Positions 1,009-36,030 of a stretch of 42,179 nt of DNA are shown in pieces (position 1 is the stretch's first letter; every line of letters begins with the position of its first letter). Under the pieces are notes generated by a model. It saw nothing but the letters and a program-made list of their open reading frames with translations. It made no database searches and was not told the DNA's origin. This DNA comes from a virus. Taxonomy: Duplodnaviria > Heunggongvirae > Uroviricota > Caudoviricetes. The stretch is taken from IMG/VR virus record IMGVR_UViG_2778261252_000010, positions 1-42,179 of that record. One strand, written 5' to 3'. The position numbers and the translations under genes are program-made.

Positions 1009-1083
1009 GTCCTCTTAGTTAAATGGATATAACGAGCCCCTCCTAAGGGCTAATTGCAGGTTCGATTCCTGCAGGGGACACCA
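1009..1083 (+). tRNA. argW: tRNA-Arg (anticodon CCU)
   Basis: 75 nt folding as a cloverleaf: acceptor GTCCTCT/AGGGGAC, anticodon stem AGCCC/GGGCT with loop CTCCTAA (anticodon CCT), T-arm GCAGG-TTCGATT-CCTGC, 3' ACCA. Confidence 0.85.
1069..1083. repeat. attL core: 15-bp CTGCAGGGGACACCA at the tRNA 3' end, repeated at 40854..40868
   Basis: Exact 15-bp direct repeat at both prophage borders; the left copy is the 3' terminus of argW. Confidence 0.7.
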
Positions 1084-1199: not shown

Positions 1200-1244
1200 G
1201 GGTAAAAAGTGGATAAAATAATTTTACCCACCGGATTTTTACCC
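1200..1244. promoter_or_regulatory. Cluster of GGGTAAAA-type repeats in both orientations directly upstream of intS (putative integrase/excisionase binding sites overlapping the intS promoter)
   Basis: GGGTAAAAA, GGATAAAAT, TTTTACCC and TTTTTACCC within 45 bp ending at the intS ATG; the same motif recurs at the torI end (40775..40795). Confidence 0.4.
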
Positions 1245-2399
1245 ATGCTCACCGTTAAGCAGATTGAAGCAGCAAAGCCGAAAGAAAAACCATACCGCCT
1301 TCTCGATGGTAATGGCCTGTACCTTTATGTCCCTGTGTCAGGGAAAAAGGTATGGCAGCTTCGCTACAAGATTGACGGTAAGGAGAAAATCCTGACCGTA
1401 GGAAAATATCCGCTAATGACTTTGCAGGAGGCAAGAGATAAAGCATGGACCGCGAGGAAAGACATCTCGGTTGGCATCGATCCGGTAAAAGCGAAAAAGG
1501 CTTCGTCTAACAACAATTCCTTTAGTGCAATTTACAAGGAATGGTACGAGCACAAGAAGCAAGTATGGTCAGTAGGCTATGCAACTGAGCTTGCCAAAAT
1601 GTTTGATGACGACATTTTACCCATCATCGGCGGTCTTGAGATTCAGGATATTGAGCCGATGCAACTGCTGGAAGTAATCCGCAGATTTGAAGATCGCGGT
1701 GCAATGGAACGAGCCAACAAAGCCCGCAGAAGATGCGGCGAGGTTTTCCGTTACGCTATTGTCACCGGAAGGGCTAAATATAACCCGGCACCTGACCTTG
1801 CAGACGCCATGAAAGGATACCGCAAGAAGAACTTCCCGTTTCTTCCAGCAGACCAGATCCCTGCATTCAACAAAGCACTGGCAACATTTTCAGGAAGTAT
1901 CGTATCGCTCATTGCGACCAAAGTTTTACGCTACACAGCCCTAAGAACGAAAGAGCTTCGCTCCATGCAATGGAAGAACGTCGATTTTGAAAACAGGATT
2001 ATCACCATCGACGCCAGTGTGATGAAGGGACGCAAAATTCATGTGGTCCCGATGTCAGACCAGGTGGTTGAACTTCTCACTACGCTAAGCTCAATCACTA
2101 AACCAGTATCAGAGTATGTTTTTGCCGGGCGCAACGATAAGAAGAAGCCAATTTGCGAGAACGCTGTACTACTTGTGATCAAACAAATCGGATATGAGGG
2201 TCTGGAAAGCGGACACGGATTCAGGCATGAATTCAGCACGATTATGAACGAGCACGAATGGCCTGCTGACGCGATTGAGGTTCAACTGGCGCATGCCAAC
2301 GGTGGATCTGTGCGCGGGATTTACAACCATGCTCAGTATCTGGATAAGCGCAGAGAAATGATGCAGTGGTGGGCTGATTTCATTGACGGAAAAGCATGA
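1245..2399 (+). CDS. intS: Tyrosine recombinase / prophage integrase (P4-like family)
   Basis: ORF next to the tRNA; N-terminus MLTVKQIEAAKP typical of P4-family integrases; C-terminal catalytic region with R..H..R..Y-type residues; start taken at the second Met (1245) of the 1209..2399 ORF. Confidence 0.8.
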   Translation: MLTVKQIEAAKPKEKPYRLLDGNGLYLYVPVSGKKVWQLRYKIDGKEKILTVGKYPLMTLQEARDKAWTARKDISVGIDPVKAKKASSNNNSFSAIYKEWYEHKKQVWSVGYATELAKMFDDDILPIIGGLEIQDIEPMQLLEVIRRFEDRGAMERANKARRRCGEVFRYAIVTGRAKYNPAPDLADAMKGYRKKNFPFLPADQIPAFNKALATFSGSIVSLIATKVLRYTALRTKELRSMQWKNVDFENRIITIDASVMKGRKIHVVPMSDQVVELLTTLSSITKPVSEYVFAGRNDKKKPICENAVLLVIKQIGYEGLESGHGFRHEFSTIMNEHEWPADAIEVQLAHANGGSVRGIYNHAQYLDKRREMMQWWADFIDGKA

Positions 2400-2490: not shown

Positions 2491-4422
2491 TTAGTTTGTT
2501 AACACAGACCCACTTATGAGTATTGCATTTGACGTACTGGTTATGTTTGGCATCCAAACCACACCGTTAGTATCGATCATCGCAGATCCATAGTTCGTAC
2601 CAGCAGTATTCGAAACCTGTGCTGCACCTCCATATAACAGCCCTCCAAATGACGGAAGTGTCGTTTTTGATAGACCATGTTCACATGAAAGATAGTTTGT
2701 TGGCGACACTTTAACCGAAAAAGATACAATCTTATTATTTCTTGTAAATTTTCCTTCAATTAACGCACCTCCTGGAGCTGTCCAACCAGGGATCCCAGGT
2801 ATAAAGTCGCGACAACTCAAATCTCCTGTAATTGTTAAATAGTTCTGAATCCAGGAATCAGAACCAGCTATTCCTTTTGTTAGTTTTTCTGAATACACAT
2901 TAGTTATTTCTGTGTGCCCATTGACGCCTACAGCATTAATATCAGATGTCACATTACCTACCTGCGAATGTGATACTGGGTTTTCTATCAAAATATTACT
3001 ATTGGCACCGGATGTGCCATCCAACTTAACCAGGGCTCCATCTATGTCTCCAGTAAGATTTCCATTCCCTGCGCCATATGGGGAGGTAAGAACTACTTGA
3101 GAACACCCTGTAGATAGATAAAAAACACCTAACTTATTTCCTTCCCCTGCGCAGTTGATAGCAGTAAACCCTTCAACAGAATGCAGTATATAGCCATACC
3201 CAGAAACTTCACTTCCTTCACTTGCACAAGTGTTCATAGAGCAATAGATACAATTTTGGAAATAGAAATAACCACCAATGCCATAACAGTTTTCAAACAG
3301 CAATGAAGTACATGCCGGTTGCACACAGAAAGAAGGGCCACCTCCATGCATCCACACTTTGCAATGAGAGATATTCCCCATGAAAGCACAGTCTGTGCCA
3401 TTAGATTCCCCAAAGCGGATACCTTGCCCCCCAGGTCCAGTATCGGAATCCACAGTAAGACCAGTTAATCTAAAATCATCTATTTTAGTCAGCCATAAAG
3501 CGACTGAAAGCGAACTACCACCGGCACGATGCGATACATGAAAATCTTCTAAAACCAGACCTCTTACTCCCTTAAAAGTAATGGCACGCGAATTTTGCGG
3601 TATAGAATCAAAATTTAAATAGCAAAGGTTTTTAGTTTTGGCATTTGCCATATGATTATAAGAGCCAGTACCTGTTATTTTCAGGCTCGCCTCATCATTA
3701 AAGTCAATAACAAGTGGTTTTGAAAATTTATATTTACCACTTAAACTAATTTCTTTACCCCGTGCAGCAGCGATGCATTTTGTAAATGCTGCATGGCAAT
3801 CAACGGTGTCAGTAGGATCTGCTCCCCACCATTCGGGTTTGTAGCTCCCTTCTATTACCCTCTTCCATCTCCTACCGGAAGCCCCAACCAAAATGATTCC
3901 ATCATCATCATCGCTCGTAGTGTCTGTATCATCTAAATAAAACCATCCTTCTCCGCCATCAAATAACCCTGACCTCCCAAGGCAATATATTTTTTTTGAT
4001 TTCTCAGAATAAGTTCTTATATCAGAAAAATACGCTCCTCCAACCAGCGTTGAGCCATAAACATCGGCTAGGCGATTTGTGAACTGATCCGGGTCGTACT
4101 TCAGAACATTCGGAAAATAGAACTGCTGCGCCCCGTACGCATCATAAACAGCCATAGAATGGCCTTGCACAGTTACGAACTTGGCAATCTGTCCGTTATA
4201 TACCGGATAACCAGCAGCGTTAATGATGATTGGCTGTGCAACAGGAACGTGAGAACCATCTTCGTTCTCCACATAAACCTGAATCTGGTTTTCAGGATTT
4301 ACTGGGTCAGTGTCAATTTTACCGATATAAATTTTGCCATTAGCTACGGCTTTGAAAGAACGAGCCATAGTGAAGAGTTGCGATGGCATACTTACTACAA
4401 CATTGGCTGTAATGTCTGTCAT
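2491..4422 (-). CDS. Tailspike protein: P22 gp9-like N-terminal head-binding domain fused to a divergent, Cys-rich receptor-binding/depolymerase domain
   Basis: First ~115 aa ([11 protein letters not shown]...[19 protein letters not shown]...VLKYDPDQ) match the P22 tailspike head-binding domain from memory; last gene of the late operon, as gene 9 is in P22. Confidence 0.8.
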
Positions 4423-4522: not shown

Positions 4523-5425
4523 TCAGTAGTTATGTACTGAAGGAGGTAATTCTTTATTCTTAAGTCTCATCCATGCGGAAAGATTCGTTGGTCCGTCTGG
4601 CTCATTGATATCAACATCTCGTGTGTGATTGATTAAAACGTCTCTCGCCATTCCGATAACATACGAGAATTCATGACCGTAGTCGTAGCATCTGCCGGAA
4701 TAGTTCGATTGAATTTGTTTTAATGCCGGATACAGTTCGCGGAATAATGCCTGTGAACGGTTGGCATAATCCCATAACCATACAAGGCTGTTTGCTTCTT
4801 TTGCAGAAAGCTCGTTGGTTTTCTTCTCTTGTTTGCCAATGAACTCACCTTCAAGCACTACCCTGTGGATGTACTCTACTGCTTGCGGTATCTGAGATGC
4901 ATCAAGCTCTTCAATACTTTCCACATTGAAACGCTGATGAATCATTGCATAAGCTTCTGGGTACATTAGATGCTTTTTGCTGACTAGCATATTTACAGCA
5001 TCACGAAGCGGAGTCCTGTCATCAACAGATGTTTTCTTACGTGCATTTTCTGCCTTTCCCTTCGTCCAGTAGTCATGCAGCACAGTAAAGCATTCCTCCT
5101 GGTACTGAATCAGTTTATCGCGTATGTCAGCACGAACTTTCTCAGGGTTGATGCTGAACAGCCATCCATTTAACTTCTTCAAAGGAAGGCAGAGTAGCTT
5201 ACGAAGCTTACCATCAGCGGCAACCATATTCATATGAATACAGTTGAACTTATCTAGTTGTTTCATAAGTTTTTGTTGCTGAGTACCCCAGCTCATTCCG
5301 AGGTTTTCAACGATTGGCTTCATCGCAACATATGCAACTCCGGCAGCCATGGCGGTGATAATCTGCTGACCATTGAAAGGTACGTAAGAGGTGTTCACTG
5401 CTTCTAAAATTGCTATACTATTCAT
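4523..5425 (-). CDS. ant: Antirepressor Ant (P22 immI type)
   Basis: 300-aa product beginning [22 protein letters not shown] from the Met preceded by a GGAG ribosome-binding site; position downstream of arc in a mnt-arc-ant arrangement. Confidence 0.75.
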
Positions 5426-5487
5426 GTTGGTTTTTCTCCACGGATTTACCGACAACCGAAGCCCTGACTGTTACCGCAGTTGGGGCT

Positions 5488-5670
5488 TCACTGTTTTATG
5501 TTCACATCTAACATTGTTTTTCTAGAATTTAACTCTTTCCCCATCGCTTCAACGCAAAGAGATACACAACCACTACAGATAAATATCTCTGCTTTAGCGC
5601 GAATCAACATTGCACATTCATGCTGAGGCTTTCCGCAGAAGGAGCACTTAAAGCCATCTTCTTTATTCAT
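5488..5670 (-). CDS. 60-aa protein resembling the ClpX N-terminal C4 zinc-binding domain
   Basis: KCSFCGKPQHECAMLI...ICSGCVSLC aligns with ClpX YCSFCGKSQHEVRKLI...ICDECVDLC (same Cys spacing); start ATG overlaps the arc stop (ATGA) and is preceded by a GAGGG ribosome-binding site. Confidence 0.6.
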   Translation of the reverse strand: MNKEDGFKCSFCGKPQHECAMLIRAKAEIFICSGCVSLCVEAMGKELNSRKTMLDVNIKQ

Positions 5671-5819
5671 ATCGCCACACCCTCTCTCTTCAGGCTGTCT
5701 ATCAGGCGCTTGATAACCTCTGAGTTAAACGACCTGCACTCTTCCTTTGCCCTGCTACCGATAGCATCCTTTAACGACTGCGGCATCCTTACCAAAATCT
5801 TACTTATTTCTTTCTCCAT
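5667..5819 (-). CDS. arc: Arc-like ribbon-helix-helix repressor
   Basis: 50-aa product MEKEISKILVRMPQ...CRSFNSEVIKRL with an Arc/MetJ-type RHH signature; GGAGGG ribosome-binding site; divergent from mnt. Confidence 0.7.
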   Translation of the reverse strand: MEKEISKILVRMPQSLKDAIGSRAKEECRSFNSEVIKRLIDSLKREGVAI

Positions 5820-5933
5820 GTTACCCTCCACACAAACAACTCTTTTCGAATACAAAAGATAGCAAAGTGAGTATATCTAGTCAAAATTTTTTTGCATACA
5901 CTTTGATATCAAATTGAATACCAAAGGTGTGAT
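5820..5933. promoter_or_regulatory. Divergent Pant/Pmnt promoter-operator region of immI
   Basis: 114-bp AT-rich intergenic region between divergent arc and mnt; by analogy with P22 immI. Individual operators not resolved. Confidence 0.4.
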
Positions 5934-6185
5934 ATGGCAAAGGGTGTGTCAATTTCTCCAACTACGGTAAGAATCCCTGAATCTTTACGCGAGGCTCTTG
6001 CTGTCAGAGCATCAAAAAATGGTCGCTCTGTTAACTCCGAGATCGTCATGATTTTGCAAGCCGCGATTGATGAAGATAGGTCGCCAAAGTCAGTTGAGTC
6101 ATTTGCTCAGCAAGAAGCTGACAAATTCAAAGAGGCGCTGCTTGAGACGCTGAGGAACATGCAAGAAAACAAAAAACCCACCTGA
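5934..6185 (+). CDS. mnt: Mnt-like repressor (ribbon-helix-helix)
   Basis: 83 aa, same length as P22 Mnt, with N-terminal RHH motif (RIPESLREALAVRASKNGRSVNSEI). Confidence 0.7.
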   Translation: MAKGVSISPTTVRIPESLREALAVRASKNGRSVNSEIVMILQAAIDEDRSPKSVESFAQQEADKFKEALLETLRNMQENKKPT

Positions 6186-6199
6186 AGGTGGGTTTTATA
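6171..6199. terminator. Bidirectional intrinsic terminator between mnt and the convergent gene
   Basis: CCCACC-tgaa-GGTGGG hairpin flanked by an A-run upstream and a T-run downstream. Confidence 0.6.
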
Positions 6200-6200
6200 A

Positions 6201-7187
6201 TTAGATTTCTGGTTTTATTCTTCCAAAAACCTTTTCTATTCCTTTTTCGTATTCTTCTCTTGTCTCGCTCATCGCTGCGACACCAAGAAGCTTACCGATA
6301 TGCTGACGCAAAGCCTTGACACCAATTTCAGAAAGGAACAGGTGCAACTTATCAGATTGTTTTCCGTTCTCGTCTCGGCTGGCTCGAATCTGTTCAAGGA
6401 TTTTACCTTTACTCTTTGCTAGAGGAGTGTATATCTGCATGTTGGTTAGCTGCCCAAAACGAATTGGACGTCCTTTCTCTGGCCTGTTCAGGCCGTACAG
6501 TCGATACCACTCCTCATATAGCTCATCTGGAAATTCTTTTTCATACTGCCTCGCCTCTTCACGAACAAAGGCCTTGAAGGAATCAATAACCTCCTGTACT
6601 TCAGGTCGATATCCTGCAATAGCATAACCAAGTCCTTTAAGCCCTGCTTTCATTGATGCGGTAACAAGTCTTTGGGCAAGGCTGGCAGATTTTGATCTTG
6701 AAGGCGGTAGAGCGCCAGCTCGATCGGCATTAATCATTGCTGTGGCTATATCGCCGATAAGGGCAATATCGTAACCGTGAGCCTCATCAGCGAGTGGATT
6801 TGGGGCTGAGTTTGGGACCGGACTTCTCCATTGAAAAATAAGAGGTTTTTTGAATTTTTCTAGCAGAAATGGATCAACAAAATCAGCCATATAATTCGTA
6901 TTTAGAAAACGGTCTACATCCCTACCATGCTCACCGATTCCTAGTAATTTAGCCAGACCAGTTTTACTAACTACAACCGTTTTATCATTATCATCAAGTA
7001 CGTAACATTCTGCATCAATGCCGAAATCATCAATGAAGTTACCCTTTCTGATCGCTCTTAGTGGCTTACCTTCCCATCGTTTTGCCGCTGCTTTCTTTGC
7101 TATTTCAGAACGCTGCTCTTTAGTCAGCGACTTTGCGCGAGCGATCCCGCCCTTAGCTTTCCCTTCGCCACTTTTCTTTTCAGTCAT
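6201..7187 (-). CDS. Hypothetical phage protein, paralog of the cI-downstream gene 33149..34069 (possibly P63C-type regulator domain; unverified)
   Basis: 329 aa from an ATG with AGGTG ribosome-binding site (the ORF track extends to 7262); shares blocks with the 33149..34069 product (AECYVLDD vs IDCYVLD; FPDELYEEWYRLYG vs FPDELWEEFGRLTG). Confidence 0.65.
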   Translation of the reverse strand: MTEKKSGEGKAKGGIARAKSLTKEQRSEIAKKAAAKRWEGKPLRAIRKGNFIDDFGIDAECYVLDDNDKTVVVSKTGLAKLLGIGEHGRDVDRFLNTNYMADFVDPFLLEKFKKPLIFQWRSPVPNSAPNPLADEAHGYDIALIGDIATAMINADRAGALPPSRSKSASLAQRLVTASMKAGLKGLGYAIAGYRPEVQEVIDSFKAFVREEARQYEKEFPDELYEEWYRLYGLNRPEKGRPIRFGQLTNMQIYTPLAKSKGKILEQIRASRDENGKQSDKLHLFLSEIGVKALRQHIGKLLGVAAMSETREEYEKGIEKVFGRIKPEI

Positions 7188-7343
7188 AATGCAAGCACCT
7201 TTATTGTGATGTATGCTTGCATTATATGCACTGTACACACATACAAGCAAGCATAAAACCAAAACAAAATGCTTGCATTACAACCGCGCTACTCCAACTA
7301 CACATTATCATCTGGTATCCTGCGCAAAACTAAGGAGGTTGGT

Positions 7344-7838
7344 GTGTCTGATTCTATGAGTTACGCTGTGCTAGTTGCCGCAACTCTATTTCTGGGGATA
7401 GGGTTGCAGATTGCGTGGTTCTTTTTTTCTAGTTTTATTAAACGTAAAAGAATTGAATCAAGGATATCTGAGATTTCTATTGCTATAGGGAAAAATGCTG
7501 AAAATCCAGAGAATGAGGCCTGCGCACTGAATTACCTTAAAGAAAAGTTTTCCCCTGAAAAATTTGAAAACAGAATTACTGATGCTCTTGGATTGGTAAT
7601 ATCAGTAATTCATATGCCACTAAGTTTGCTGATAACAGTGTGGTACTTCGCCATGATCGCCGGAAGAATATTTGGTTTCATGAATATAGAGCCTGTAGTT
7701 CTTTGGGTTCCAATGATACTGCAATTGTTGTTAAGCGTTGCTATCTTTATTTTTTCTGTTTTTATAAAAATTGTCTTCGGAAGATACCCCGGAGAAGCGA
7801 AGGGATTTAATAAAGAATTCATAAAAACTATAAAATAA
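7344..7838 (+). CDS. Small polytopic inner-membrane protein in the sieA position (putative superinfection-exclusion or moron product)
   Basis: AT-rich ORF with several hydrophobic helices; strong AAGGAGG ribosome-binding site before GTG 7344 (in-frame ATG at 7356 is an alternative start); opposite strand to the late operon. Confidence 0.55.
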
Positions 7839-7860
7839 ATGCCGTCCTTGGCTTACAGTG

Positions 7861-9735
7861 CTACTGCCGGGTAGCTTCGTTAACTAAGAGCGGGCGCACG
7901 GCAGTAGCCGCCTGATTTAGCGCTCTTTCATAAGCTGGCGTTCCAGCTTTAGTGTTTGCCAGACGTAAGAGCGCATTCCTTGCTGCTTTGGATTCATACA
8001 AGCGCATCATTGCACCGAAACCAGCCTCAAGCCCCATTGATACGCCAAGAGTCGTAGTTGCGCCAATCGTCCTTATCCTGTTGGCTTGCGATTGCCCCGT
8101 CTGAGTTACTACATTTGCGGTGTCTGATCTTGCTGTTTGCTGTAGAACTTCATGAAGAGCATCAAGCTCTTTCATGTGCTTTCCAGAAAAAATAGTGTTG
8201 TAAATTTCACCGCCTGACTGAGATTTAAGCTTATTAACTTCAGTGATGAACTTGGCTGGAGAGTCACCGGCCTTTTCCGCTATTTTGCTGACGTAAGCTG
8301 CACGCATAGCATCTTTCCCTTTATCATCCAATGCGCTCCAGATTCGTTTCACGTCAGATGGTTTTCTGCTTAATACAACGGTATTTATAAGTTCAGGACT
8401 GGCTTCACTGCTTGCCTTGTTGAGCTTGTTAGCAATGTTTTTATTAAGCACCTTATTATAAACGTTTGCATAATCGGAATTTGCTTTAAGGTATTTTGCT
8501 GCGTCTGATGCACCGAGGTTTTTAGCAACTGCGTTACGAAGGTCTTTTGACATTGCATTCTCTACCATATTGGTAGCTGCTTTTGCCTGGTTGGGGAAGA
8601 CCATAGCATCTCCCTGAACATTAGATCTAAATGCTGTTCTGTGCTGACGCAAGAGATCAAACGTAACATCCAAATCAGTTGCAGGGTTTGCTAATTCTTC
8701 ACGTAGGTTACGCAAGGATGTAAGCAGGCTTTGATTGGCAGACGTCCCAAGCCGTTCCTGTCTTGCGATCGCTGTATTCAGAGCATTCATGGTATTTGTG
8801 GTATCAACTGCGGCATTACCCATTTTATTGGTGACGTCATTGATAACAGCGCCAGCGGCATCCTTCCGCCCCCTTAACGTGGTGGTAAGAGATTTCACCA
8901 CATCATCAGGGTTGTACTCACCAAACCGGTCAAAATAATTACTTACCAGCTTACTACGCGTTGCATATTGCTCCGCTCGCTTTGAGCCTGTCCCGAGCAA
9001 AGCCCCCTCGGCATCCTGAGTTAGGCCGCGAGTGAAAGCATTTTTCGGCGGGATAACATCAGATGTCATTGGTGTCACGCCCATCGATTCTGATGTGGCA
9101 ATTTTCTTCGCCACTTCTGGCGCAATATCACCTTTTATAGCCGTTATTCCACGCCCTATTCCCTTTGCTGCTGCGGAAAGAACACCCTGAGCGGCAAGGT
9201 TAACTCCGGCATTTTTAGCTGCATTTTGTGCGAAATCGCCTTTCTGATTTGCGGCCTCTGCCAGTGATCCAATAGCCATGCTTCCTGCCGTTCCAACTCC
9301 TGGAACTAAATACCCGCCAATTGTTTCTCCAGCTTGCGCATAAGGGTCTGTCGGTCGATCGACTGGACGATAGACATCATCCAATACTTTTGGCCCACCA
9401 AGCCCCTGACTGATTGCATTAATCAGACTTGCGCCACCCTGCAATACGTCAAATGGTATGTTTACCAGACCACGACCAGCCTGTTCTGCAATTTGCCCTG
9501 CACTTTGACCACCAGTGAGCCAATCGCCAGCTTGTTGCATCAATGATGGTTCTTCTTTCTGCTGCTGAGGCGGAGGGTATGCTGCATAAAACTGATCTCT
9601 TGCTTCAGCCCATTTGTCACCAGCCTTAGGGGCAACAACCTCATCAAAATATTGCGCTTGAGCCTGTGCTTTCTGTTCTTCAGTTAACGCCTGATACTGT
9701 GGAGAGGCGATAACATCTTTCCATGCTTTAGCCAT
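7861..9735 (-). CDS. Ejection (internal virion) protein, P22 gp16-like
   Basis: 624 aa, Ala/Gln/Gly-rich; N-terminus [22 protein letters not shown] and position match P22 gene 16. Confidence 0.75.
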
Positions 9736-11099
9736 TAATCACCCCATAGTGAAGAAAAGTTACTGCTGGCTGCTGGCTGTGATACCTGTGTAGGTTGAGA
9801 TTGCTGCCGCTGAGATTTACCAACATTAATGTTATATTGTTGGTTGTAATTGTCGGTATATTGCTGAATGTCGCGCATTGATTGTTGCAGTGCTTCAGGG
9901 CTTGAGAAATCAACCTGTGGCATACCTTGAAAATACATCTTTGCTTCTGCAACGGTGTTGATACCGGATGCCCCCATGTCTCTGGCTGCTGCAATGCCCT
10001 GATTCTGCATCTTTCCTTGGATTCGCTGTGCAGCGTTGTATAGTTTCCTCTGATCACCACCAGATGCACGGCTACGAATATCTGCACCAAGAGCAGGAGA
10101 ACCTGAAGAGCCTGTAATGCCAGTCATGAAGCCAAGATCGTCAATTGATGCACCAGAAATTGCATCAAGATCTTTCTTCATTGCGTAATTCTGCGCGCTT
10201 GCTGCCGATGTAGCCGGAGCGGCAATAGAGCCAGCAGGAACGCGAACCATATTCCCCTCGTTGTCGATACCTTCGTAGAACGCATTAGCCCCAGCGCCGT
10301 GAAGCTTCCCGCCTACCGTTACAGTTCTGCCATCTGCTAACTGAACTGTACGCTCATTATTCCCAACCGACCCTTTCATTGATGCTCTCTGCATCGATAA
10401 ATCCTGACCGCGCATCGTGATGTTCTGGCCTCGTGCTGTTAGCGCCTCGCCAGCCTGATTGCTGCGGATTGTCTCTGCCAACTTGCCACGCTCAATATCC
10501 CGCCCCTCCATTCGATCTTTTATATCGAAGTACTTCTCATGACCGAGAGAAAATAGTGCCAGATTACCTGCGAAGTGCTGGAAGCCCTGCGGGTCATTAA
10601 CCTGCATTTCAGCAATAGTTTCTGGAGGGATACCTAAACGACGCATCTCCTGCTCATTATCCATCATGAACCTGCCAAATGCGCCCGGACCAAGCGATGA
10701 GGCTACCTGTGCTTTAAGCGCCAGATTGCCAAAATCATCCCGCTGGGCGTCATCGACATACCCCATCCCTTTACGGACTTCCTCAAACTCTTCAGGGAAT
10801 GCTGTAATAAGATTACGCATCTGCTCCCTGTCGCCGGACGCATAAGCATCTGCATAACCTTTCTGGAATGCCGCTTTACGCTCCTGCTGTTGCTCCTGCT
10901 TATAAATATCAGCAACTCCAGCCAGACCACGTAACGCGGTCAGACCAACGTTATTTGCACCTGATCGAGACAGTTCATTGTTTTCGCGGATCAGACCAAG
11001 CGTTGCATTAATGTCGCTTGCCTTTGGCGCATTCTCGTTTTGCGCACCAATGCCAGCCAGAAAACCACCAGAATTAATACCCTGTTGCCACGTAGCCAT
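9735..11099 (-). CDS. Ejection protein, P22 gp20-like
   Basis: 454 aa; position and size in the gp7-gp20-gp16 block. Confidence 0.7.
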
Positions 11100-11109
11100 T
11101 GATTACCCC

Positions 11110-11802
11110 TTAAAACAGTGAACCAAGCAGACCAAGACCAGCACCGATACCAGCACCCCACGGAGTTGATAGCTCGAGAGCACTGGCTATGCCACCCCCC
11201 AAAAGCGCACCGGATGCAGCACCACTAACCCCCTGCTGCAATGCTGACGGTCGGTTGGCGTTTGCCGCAGCCAGCGCCGCGCTTTGCTGTGAAATCTGAC
11301 TCATGTTGTTGGCATATGTTTGCCCGGCGTTTGCCTGCCCCTGAAGAGCGCCAAGACCGATATTTGCCAGGTTGTTGTAATTGTTCATTTGTCCAGATAG
11401 CCATTGCTGACCAAGCGTTGGTGCGATTGTTGCTAACTGATTACTGGTTGCGGTGGAACCCAATCCACCTGTTGCTTCCGCTGCCGCAAGACTCTGATAG
11501 CGAGCCTGACCTGAAAGGTCTTTATACTGCTGAGAGTTGTAATACTGGTTAAGTGCCTGACCTTGCCCCTCCAGAGACGATAAGTTCTCGAGGCTGCCGA
11601 CATACTTCTCAGCCAGAGGAGTAAACGGCTTCAGGTTATTCATGATGGTGTTGAACTGCTGATTTTGCAGGTCTGCGGCATACTTCTGAGCTTCTGCTGC
11701 ATACTTTGCGCTTTTATCAGAGCTGCCACCTTTCCCGCCTTTTTCAGGGCAATAAGGTTCCTCGCCGCGCAGTTTTCTGCCCAGCTTAAATGCATATAAC
11801 AT
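11110..11802 (-). CDS. Ejection protein, P22 gp7-like
   Basis: 230 aa (P22 gp7 is 229); position in the ejection-protein block. Confidence 0.7.
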   Translation of the reverse strand: MLYAFKLGRKLRGEEPYCPEKGGKGGSSDKSAKYAAEAQKYAADLQNQQFNTIMNNLKPFTPLAEKYVGSLENLSSLEGQGQALNQYYNSQQYKDLSGQARYQSLAAAEATGGLGSTATSNQLATIAPTLGQQWLSGQMNNYNNLANIGLGALQGQANAGQTYANNMSQISQQSAALAAANANRPSALQQGVSGAASGALLGGGIASALELSTPWGAGIGAGLGLLGSLF

Positions 11803-21866: not shown

Positions 21867-22160
21867 ATCAACCTCGTCTAGTTGTTCGTCATAGATTCAG
21901 TGGCTGGCGGTGACGATTCCGCTTTTCGGGAGCTACCCTAGCCACTGTTTTATTCTATCCGATGTCTTTCCATCAGTCCGCCACCACAAAGAATCTTTTT
22001 TGCCATAAGGCAGGAGGTTCATCTTTCAGTGGCTGCCAGTGTTATTTCCCCACTTACTGGCTTGGGTTGTTTCGCGGTACTGCCGTAACTGGTTGCCCAG
22101 AATAAATTCCGGTTTCATTATCAAGCCCACCCGTAGATAGGCTTTGTAATGACTACATGG

Positions 22161-24712: not shown

Positions 24713-24754
24713 TATTATGCCGTTAATATGTTGCCATCCGTGGCAATCATGCTG

Positions 24755-25378
24755 CTAACGTGTGACCGCGTTCAAAATGTTGTCTGCGATTGACTCTTCC
24801 TTGTGGCATTGCACCACCAGAGCGTCATACAGCGGCTTAACAGTGCGTGACCAGGTGGGTTGAGTAAGGTTTGGGATTAGCATCGTTACAGCGCGATATG
24901 CGGCGCTTGCTGGCATCCTTGAATAGCCGACACCTTTGCATCTTCCGCATTCTTTCTCAACAACTCTCCCCCACAGCTCTGTTTTGGCAATATCAACCGC
25001 ACGGCCTGTACCGTGGCAATCTCTGCATCTTGCGCCCGGCGTCGCGGCACTACGGCAATAATCCGCATAAGCGAATGTTGCGAGAACTTGCAGTACCTTT
25101 GCCTTAGTATTTCCTTCAAGCTTTGCCACGCCACGGTATTTCCCCGATACCTTGTGTGCAAATTGCATCAGATAGTTGATAGCCTTTTGTTTGTCGTTCT
25201 GGCTGAGTTCATGCTTACCACAGAATGCAGCCATTCCGAATCCGGCTTGTGATTGCGCCATCCCCATAGCAGCCATCACATCAGTACCGGAAAGAGAGTC
25301 AGAAGCCGTAGCCCGTGGTGAGTCGCTCATCATCGGGCTTTTTGGCGAATGAAATTTAGCTACGCTTTCGAGTCTCAT
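24755..25378 (-). CDS. Q: Late antiterminator Q (lambda type)
   Basis: 207 aa, matches lambda Q as remembered, including the zinc-binding Cys cluster (CRDCHGTG...CGRCKGVG). Confidence 0.9.
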   Translation of the reverse strand: MRLESVAKFHSPKSPMMSDSPRATASDSLSGTDVMAAMGMAQSQAGFGMAAFCGKHELSQNDKQKAINYLMQFAHKVSGKYRGVAKLEGNTKAKVLQVLATFAYADYCRSAATPGARCRDCHGTGRAVDIAKTELWGRVVEKECGRCKGVGYSRMPASAAYRAVTMLIPNLTQPTWSRTVKPLYDALVVQCHKEESIADNILNAVTR

Positions 25379-35178: not shown

Positions 35179-35544
35179 ATGGAAGAACAAGCAAACAAGA
35201 TTCTCGTAGAACTACTGCAAAAAGCCAGTAATGGAATAGACGCGGCTGTTTCATTTAGCCAGGCACAGATTCCTGATGTCATCCATCAGCTTTTGATGTG
35301 GCACGCCGTATCATCAGCTGGAATTCAGGCTATCTGTGTATTGGTGATTATAGCGTGTGTTTATCTGATGATTTTTGCATGGAATAAAGGAGATGATGTA
35401 GATATTATTCTTTTATCACTACTTGTCACATCAGGAATAGCGATTACTTCTATTGTTGTTTTCTTCAATTATTTCGACTGGCTGAAAATTTGGCTTGCTC
35501 CAAAACTTTACCTTATCGAATATGCCGCATCATTGGTTAAGTAA
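35179..35544 (+). CDS. Membrane protein with predicted transmembrane helices, in the sieB-like position
   Basis: 121-aa ORF, AT-rich; hydrophobic segments AGIQAICVLVIIACVYLMIFAW and IILLSLLVTSGIAITSIVVFF. Confidence 0.55.
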   Translation: MEEQANKILVELLQKASNGIDAAVSFSQAQIPDVIHQLLMWHAVSSAGIQAICVLVIIACVYLMIFAWNKGDDVDIILLSLLVTSGIAITSIVVFFNYFDWLKIWLAPKLYLIEYAASLVK

Positions 35545-35597
35545 TTTCATGCCGCATAGTCGGACTTTATTTTTGGCATAAACAATATGGGGTAAAA

Positions 35598-35924
35598 ATG
35601 AAAGTTTTAATGGTTTATGAAAATGTTCCAGAGTCGACTGAAATCTATATTTTTGATGCCAATGAAGATGAAGTTAACGATTTGAAATTGTCTCACGGCA
35701 ATTACACAAATGCTAATTGTGATGAAAGTATCGAAAAAGCACTATCACGTGTTCTTGTCAGAATTAGTGTTCCAGAACATTGTGATGATGATTGGCTTTC
35801 TTATTGTGGAGCGGTAAAAACTGATGCAGGAAAATGGAGTAAAAGTAAAGTTGATAACTCAACTCCAATCATTATGAAAGATAGTGATATTGAAATGGTA
35901 ATAATAACCGGAATGATTATGTAG
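35598..35924 (+). CDS. Hypothetical acidic protein (AT-rich moron)
   Basis: 108-aa ORF, about one-third GC by eye; followed by a 9-bp-stem hairpin. Confidence 0.5.
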   Translation: MKVLMVYENVPESTEIYIFDANEDEVNDLKLSHGNYTNANCDESIEKALSRVLVRISVPEHCDDDWLSYCGAVKTDAGKWSKSKVDNSTPIIMKDSDIEMVIITGMIM

Positions 35925-36030
35925 GCTGCGAATAAGCACTGTGTATTCATTCCAACGAGTGAATACACGGAGCAATGTCGCTCGTAACTAAACAGGAGCC
36001 GACTTGTTCTGATTATTGAAAATCTTCTTT

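Follow-up and report, generated by a model that had tools for sequence, protein, structure and literature searches.

The locus considered here raises the question of which protein is encoded by an AT-rich gene lying opposite to the late operon of a P22-like prophage, and whether this protein is the superinfection exclusion protein SieA or another membrane protein occupying its place. The window, i.e., the whole stretch of 42,179 nucleotides that was analysed, is a P22-like prophage of the E. coli type, composed as a mosaic of HK620, Sf6 and vB_EcoP-611R6-like segments, in which the genes are ordered tailspike, ant, sar, arc, mnt, P63C, sieA, gene 16, gene 20 and gene 7. A tRNA identified with Rfam (1009-1080, plus strand) adjoins the integrase gene (1209-2399, plus strand), beyond which are found the tailspike gene (2491-4422, minus strand) and ant (4523-5455, minus strand). 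The sar antisense RNA (5426-5492, plus strand) was recovered by Rfam at 88 bits, indicating that the immI region is intact, and it is accompanied by arc (5667-5855, minus strand) and mnt (5934-6185, plus strand). On the other side of the gene under study are located the ejection-protein genes, all on the minus strand: gene 16 (7861-9735; 624 aa, 77% identical to P22 gp16, PHROG 770), gene 20 (9735-11099; 63% identical to P22 gp20, PHROG 917) and gene 7 (11110-11802). The gene runs towards gene 16, their stop codons being 22 nt apart, and is the sole plus-strand gene between gene 16 and immI, its P63C neighbour being on the minus strand. An earlier note, made from the same DNA, had described it as the only plus-strand gene between the ejection-protein genes and immI and had assigned it to the position held by sieA in P22; the gene calls and the order between genes 16 and 9 agree with both statements.

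[quoted passage not shown] A small ORF encoding a 60-aa ClpX-type zinc-finger protein (5488-5670, minus strand) is inserted between arc and ant, where P22 has nothing. Between mnt and sieA, the place of P22 orf59a/hkcC is taken by a P63C-domain gene (6201-7188, minus strand; Pfam PF10546, phrog_2384 without assigned function), while other E. coli prophages with an identical sieA have a Panacea-domain gene pair or hypothetical genes at this position, which thus appears as a second variable slot. Elsewhere in the window, an int-alpA RNA was identified with Rfam (21886-21948, minus strand), and the most AT-rich stretch (about 35180-35930, plus strand), with a GC content of 33% that is below that of sieA, carries two ORFs (phrog_3054 and phrog_4658) just downstream of a Nun/N-like gene. 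This stretch is a candidate moron, situated roughly where P22 carries sieB.

The identity of the gene was addressed by sequence comparison. Its 164-residue product aligns with P22 SieA (AAF75056) over the full length and without gaps, 152 of the 164 residues being identical (93%, E=3e-114), and it matches PHROG 7745, "superinfection exclusion SieA-like", from end to end of the profile (1-164 of 164, E=7e-109). A megablast search with 7200-7900 matched 44 phage records, 40 of which derive from Salmonella phages, and the ORF is kept at 95% nucleotide identity across these records; P22 matches at 95.4% over 7313-7899, and the features matched are annotated as sieA or superinfection exclusion protein. 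Among the 12 substitutions that distinguish the protein from P22 SieA, nine are conservative; of the three others, E53K and C60Y fall within a loop predicted to be cytoplasmic, and K153N affects one of the free positions of the family motif. This motif, FxRYPxEAxxFNK, is the best-conserved part of all SieA types and spans residues 145-157 in P22 (PMC10883804); a regular-expression search found it at the same residues here (7776-7814, plus strand), in a part of the protein predicted to be cytoplasmic. Members of type A are closely related, and SieA types A to C share only about 25% identity with one another (PMC10883804). Type B, from E. coli prophage HS1, and type C, from Providencia, Proteus and Morganella, have the same slot, predicted topology core and motif as the protein studied here but carry N-terminal extensions that it lacks, making it clearly of type A. 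General libraries were silent on this family: Pfam, which has no SieA model, returned only sub-threshold noise (Kri1, DUF6161, DUF485), and NCBIfam, likewise without a model for the family, gave no match. PADLOC had no match for SieA or its P63C neighbour at E values up to 0.1; since it contains no SieA model, this result says nothing against a SieA function.

Collectively, these data make it very probable that the gene is sieA itself, of type A, in a P22-like prophage of the E. coli type. The earlier note had proposed an inner-membrane superinfection-exclusion protein in the sieA position, with the reservation that it might have a different exclusion function, and had called for an alignment with P22 SieA. 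Homology with P22 SieA supports the proposal, and the reservation can be dropped in view of the 93% identity, the PHROG match and the motif; clear homology to a non-exclusion function was not found. That the slot might here hold a different membrane protein, with another exclusion or envelope function, is suggested by sister prophages, in which unrelated small proteins with predicted membrane or signal segments are encoded behind the same leader. This reading is scarcely credible for an occupant so close to P22 SieA from one end to the other and bearing the family motif, and an unrelated protein merely sitting in the sieA slot was rejected on the alignment and the PHROG 7745 match.

The limits of the coding sequence required a correction. 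The plus-strand frame is open from 7269 to 7838 in the ORF list, and the earlier note took the gene to cover this whole interval, behind a strong AAGGAGG ribosome-binding site. This sequence is present at 7332-7338, i.e., inside those limits, and it would serve a GTG codon at 7344: the Shine-Dalgarno element AAGGAGGT (7332-7339, plus strand) lies 4-5 nt before this codon, and P22, E. coli prophages and at least 120 viral contigs share it without any change. Being located downstream of the ATG at 7269, the ribosome-binding site cannot serve that codon. Initiation at GTG 7344 yields a gene of 495 nt (7344-7838, plus strand), the length of the P22 sieA coding sequence, and both the P22 sieA and the RefSeq PGAP annotations use the same GTG. 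The sequence thus points to GTG 7344 as the most likely translation start, giving the 164-aa type A protein, and the upstream part of the mechanical ORF (7269-7343) is most likely untranslated. The start of P22 sieA has itself been termed uncertain (PMC10883804), and initiation at ATG 7356, 12 nt past the GTG, would be a possible alternative leading to a 160-aa protein. A 189-aa product starting at ATG 7269 and bearing a 25-residue N-terminal extension would take advantage of the open frame and recall the extensions of SieA types B and C (PMC10883804). It is nonetheless very improbable, as there is no ribosome-binding site before 7269, the strong one falls inside the extension, and the extension is not hydrophobic. 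Moreover, nucleotide similarity to P22 starts only at 7313, the sequence further upstream is unrelated among sieA carriers, and P22 has, upstream of its GTG, 45 open in-frame codons with no start codon among them, in addition to the GTG starts in the P22 and PGAP annotations. The longer ORF was accordingly rejected, ATG 7269 being an accident of the local upstream sequence. With the corrected limits, the AT-richness described earlier is borne out: the GC content of 7344-7838 is 35.6%, versus 46.4% for the window, and values as low or lower occur in 0.8% of the 495-bp windows.

The prediction that the gene encodes several transmembrane helices was confirmed by a topology check. Using Kyte-Doolittle 19-residue windows with a threshold above 1.6, three hydrophobic segments were delineated on the plus strand, at residues about 8-28 (7365-7427), 81-106 (7584-7661) and 118-146 (7695-7781), the first being followed by the basic sequence KRKR. 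Likewise, TMHMM predicts three transmembrane segments in P22 SieA, a FLAG-tagged version of which was found in the inner-membrane fraction only (PMC10883804). Hydropathy, together with the 93% identity to P22 SieA, suggests that the protein is located in the inner membrane. Considering KRKR and the basic C-terminal tail, the positive-inside rule would place the N terminus in the periplasm and both the 52-residue loop and the C-terminal tail in the cytoplasm.

Compared with P22 SieA (AAF75056/DAA00996), the gene is therefore the same in its 164-aa length, its leader, ribosome-binding site and GTG start, its three hydrophobic segments and motif, and its position converging on gene 16. It differs by its 12 substitutions and its background, an E. 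coli prophage instead of a Salmonella one, and by what lies upstream, where P22 has orf59a/hkcC and the window a P63C-domain gene without the annotated P22 -35 element. The ejection proteins are also only 77% (gp16) and 63% (gp20) identical between the two.

How the gene is expressed in its present context can be approached from the P22 promoter, as annotated in the curated record BK000583. In this record, PsieA (TTGGTA...TTTCAT) is located within the 31 nt that directly precede the conserved leader. Since homology with P22 starts at 7313, the -35 element (TTGGTA) is not conserved, and an unrelated sequence is found in its place. A candidate -10 element, TATCAT (7306-7311, plus strand), shares 5 of 6 positions with TATAAT and is offset by one base from the BK000583 -10, and no -35 element fitting it was found; an alternative candidate is the extended -10-like TGGTATCCT at 7313-7321. 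When 5800-8100 was scanned for consensus signals, neither a sigma-70 promoter ahead of sieA nor a terminator in the gap to gene 16 was detected. Expression of sieA beside the P63C gene is hence only presumed; judging by what was found for P22 SieA (Leavitt et al., 2024), the gene would be weakly expressed in the lysogen, using signals of its own. The intergenic region between the divergent P63C and sieA genes also contains three exact copies of TGCTTGCATTA within 94 bp, at 7187-7197 (minus strand, overlapping the P63C ATG), 7214-7224 (plus strand) and 7270-7280 (plus strand), with no further copies elsewhere in the window. These repeats are retained by E. coli prophages that carry the P63C gene, and P22 lacks them; they are probably operator sites for a regulator. 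Their use as -35 elements for sieA was considered and discarded, as the spacing of TTGCAT to any -10 does not fit.

Exclusion by P22 SieA has been studied experimentally. When P22 sieA is present as a single chromosomal copy, together with the 85 bp before it, P22 plating drops by at least 1e7 and lysogenisation by 1e5, and the protein, which acts only on P22-like phages and works in E. coli, abolishes the K+ efflux accompanying DNA entry (PMC10883804). In this account, SieA resides in the inner membrane and keeps P22-like phages from injecting their DNA, the probable cause being a disturbance of the gp16/gp20 conduit (Leavitt et al., 2024, PMC10883804), and HS1 SieA has the same exclusion phenotype (PMC10883804). 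By homology, SieA of the window would insert into the inner membrane and stop superinfecting P22-like phages from moving their DNA across it, while adsorption and phages of other types would be unaffected. To escape P22 SieA, a phage needs both P546S and G532W in gp16 plus a single gp20 substitution, which may be T338I, T341I, A348T or G350D; P546S, the universal escape substitution, gives no escape alone in P22 (PMC10883804). In the window, the four gp20 positions correspond to T326, T329, A336 and G338, all carrying the wild-type residue, as does G547 of gp16 (P22 G532). At the remaining position, T561 is found where P22 has P546, and divergence within the C-terminal region of gp16 is highest in the approximately 40 residues around it. 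With the wild-type residue at five of the six escape positions, phages of the resident kind are expected, judging from these sequences, to be among those excluded.

Two other interpretations bear on this mechanism, one on whether sieA is active in this prophage and one on what its product acts upon. The gene could be silent or decaying after replacement of the P22 promoter region by the intergenic region of the P63C gene, a reading favoured by the start of P22 homology just 31 nt before the start codon, by the absence of the annotated P22 -35 and by the lack of a detectable consensus promoter. It is improbable, however, as sieA is here an intact, conserved ORF under purifying selection, with a dN/dS of 0.36 versus P22 and 0.11 versus an E. 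coli allele, and at least eight complete E. coli genomes carry an allele that is 100% identical along all 495 nt, with three different upstream neighbours among them. In addition, TATCAT is a good -10 element, and the 34-nt leader is kept in at least 120 contigs whatever sequence lies upstream, suggesting that the signals needed are in the leader or directly beside it. As for the target, SieA might mask or titrate a host inner-membrane factor needed by the conduit, such as YajC, without contacting the ejection proteins. [quoted passage not shown] It is also consistent with the predicted topology: nearly all the non-membrane mass of SieA is predicted to be cytoplasmic, leaving little surface for the periplasmic gp20. 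On the other hand, the escape mutations map to gp16 and gp20, and exclusion, which operates at low expression, is partly overcome at high multiplicity, as fits titration of SieA by the ejection proteins; action through a host factor is hence regarded as rather unlikely, though deserving more weight than silencing of the gene. A disturbance of the gp16/gp20 conduit by an expressed SieA is the interpretation retained here; for P22 itself, SieA may either touch gp16/gp20 directly or occlude a host factor such as YajC.

SieA is reminiscent of other membrane proteins encoded by phages or prophages that block genome entry after adsorption, namely HK97 gp15, Tuc2009 Sie2009, TP-J34 Ltp and T4 Imm, which, in the cases with an identified target, act on the DNA-delivery conduit or tape measure protein of the phage itself. 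These proteins have no sequence relationship to SieA and hit long-tailed phages or myoviruses, whereas SieA hits the gp7/gp20/gp16 conduit of the short-tailed P22-like phages. A closer parallel in position is STnc6030 of the BTP1 prophage, a highly expressed transcript of more than 700 nt that is antisense to the 3' end of an injection-protein gene (PMC7067206). This prophage is also P22-like, and STnc6030 has the position and strand of sieA, opposite to the late operon, and is reported to exclude phages of its own type; it was, however, described as a non-coding antisense RNA, specific to BTP1, that does not exclude P22 (PMC7067206). BTP1 escape mutations map at the 3' end of STnc6030 (PMC7067206), and this part of gene 16 is also where escape from SieA maps, so that the possibility of a small protein encoded at STnc6030 may merit re-examination.

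The boundaries of the homology around sieA proved informative. When P22, the window and E. coli prophages are compared, their homology sets in precisely at 7313, with TGGTATCCTGCNCAAAACTAAGGAGGTTGGTGTG, and runs through the start codon. It defines a conserved leader of 34 nt, TGGTATCCTGCGCAAAACTAAGGAGGTTGGTGTG (7313-7346, plus strand), which occurs once in the window and comprises a 5' UTR or promoter-proximal element, the ribosome-binding site and the start codon. The exact leader pattern with one free position was found in at least 120 IMG/VR contigs (loci L006-L125), the 100% identity across these loci being a consequence of the exact pattern used, and had no match in a genome-contig collection with one genome per species, a sampling that makes this absence uninformative. 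Megablast with the 34-nt leader (28-nt word size) returned one record and its looser "distant" mode 69; in these 69 phage records, the leader is 91-100% identical, and among them are HK620, where it precedes hkcB, and epsilon34, where it precedes gene 14. A further copy of the leader was observed at 1501-1534 of locus L127. Identity drops to background directly on both sides of the leader, at least 12 classes of sequence being found upstream of it.

Behind the shared GTG, at least 11 unrelated families of small proteins are encoded in frame, most of them with predicted membrane or signal segments. Among the matches listed, SieA occupies 14 loci, a 129-aa protein with a signal peptide about 25 and an hkcB-like protein of 107/109 aa, with one membrane segment and a coiled coil, 28; another 109-aa type is found at 9 loci, a 62-aa type at 12 and a 75-aa type at 10, followed by 149-aa and 140-aa types (6 loci each), 99/68-aa types (7), a 116-aa type (5) and a 103/106-aa type (4). 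When ten representatives, one for each non-SieA family except the 62-aa type, were scanned against PHROG, they fell into separate PHROGs without assigned function or had no match, several of the alignments beginning at residue 1 or 2. With Pfam, only a YobH-like 68-aa protein was recognised among the slot occupants. In nearly all the loci listed, a distance of 0-60 nt separates the end of the ORF from the stop codon of a gene 16 that converges on it, and the gp16 proteins beside the slot are of at least five C-terminal types. The 62-aa type is illustrated by E. coli AR_0118 (L003), in which the leader (2713-2746) is followed by the ORF at 2745-2933 (plus strand). This ORF has two hydrophobic segments, matches phrog_21338 and uses the same leader and GTG as sieA; it is present in 89 of 5426 complete E. 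coli genomes, is unannotated in the RefSeq records listed and is probably orf62 of phage L.

A second conserved element marks the 3' side of the slot. Three nucleotides past the sieA stop codon, between sieA and gene 16, a small hairpin can be drawn (7841-7852, GCCG-TCCT-TGGC). The corresponding motif, CCNTCCNTGG, is found 0-6 nt past the stop codon of the slot gene in 52 of 116 related loci, across ten families, for a background rate of 3.75e-5 per nt; in hkcB-type genes, it falls inside the last codons (...NPSMDD). The motif can fold into a hairpin in which CCR/TGG forms the stem and TCCN the loop, and its fourth, outward pair covaries among 25 variants (GC 14, UA 4, AU 2, CG 1, GU 1 and unpaired 3), with a covariation score reached by one of 500 shuffles; pairs further out are weak. 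Another copy in the window, TTGCCA-TCCG-TGGCAA (24731-24746), lies between the stop codon of a 207-aa ORF (24755-25378, minus strand), which we take from its position to be gene-23-like, and an apparent late promoter.

It is tempting to consider, albeit tentatively, that the leader and the 3' hairpin delimit a slot for cassette exchange, in which whole ORFs are swapped from codon 2 to just past the stop codon and whose other occupants are uncharacterised envelope-level proteins acting in exclusion or host modification. We regard this possibility as less likely than the contrary. The short conserved flanks would act as recombination "linkers" for phage recombinases, and some occupants may be matched to particular gp16 types. 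That this region varies is well established; no description of the leader or the hairpin was found in the papers on the ant moron region covered by the analysis, and they may be described elsewhere.

SieA function has been established between 1974 and 2024, and the gene studied here is an already characterised phage gene, to which the window adds one more type A allele and, by this allele itself, very little. Its interest lies in part in annotation: sieA is present in 35 of 5426 E. coli genomes, and the identical allele corresponds to RefSeq WP_001519614.1, labelled "hypothetical protein", while a 98.6% nucleotide-identical allele is named "superinfection exclusion protein A" in one record. 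The gene can now be annotated as SieA, with GTG 7344 as start codon. A lysogen carrying this prophage is predicted to resist other P22-like phages at the step of DNA entry. If the exchange slot is real, the leader and hairpin would provide a simple sequence handle with which to harvest candidate exclusion genes from P22-like prophages, and would offer a tangible example of the "linker sequence" concept long put forward for modular phage evolution.
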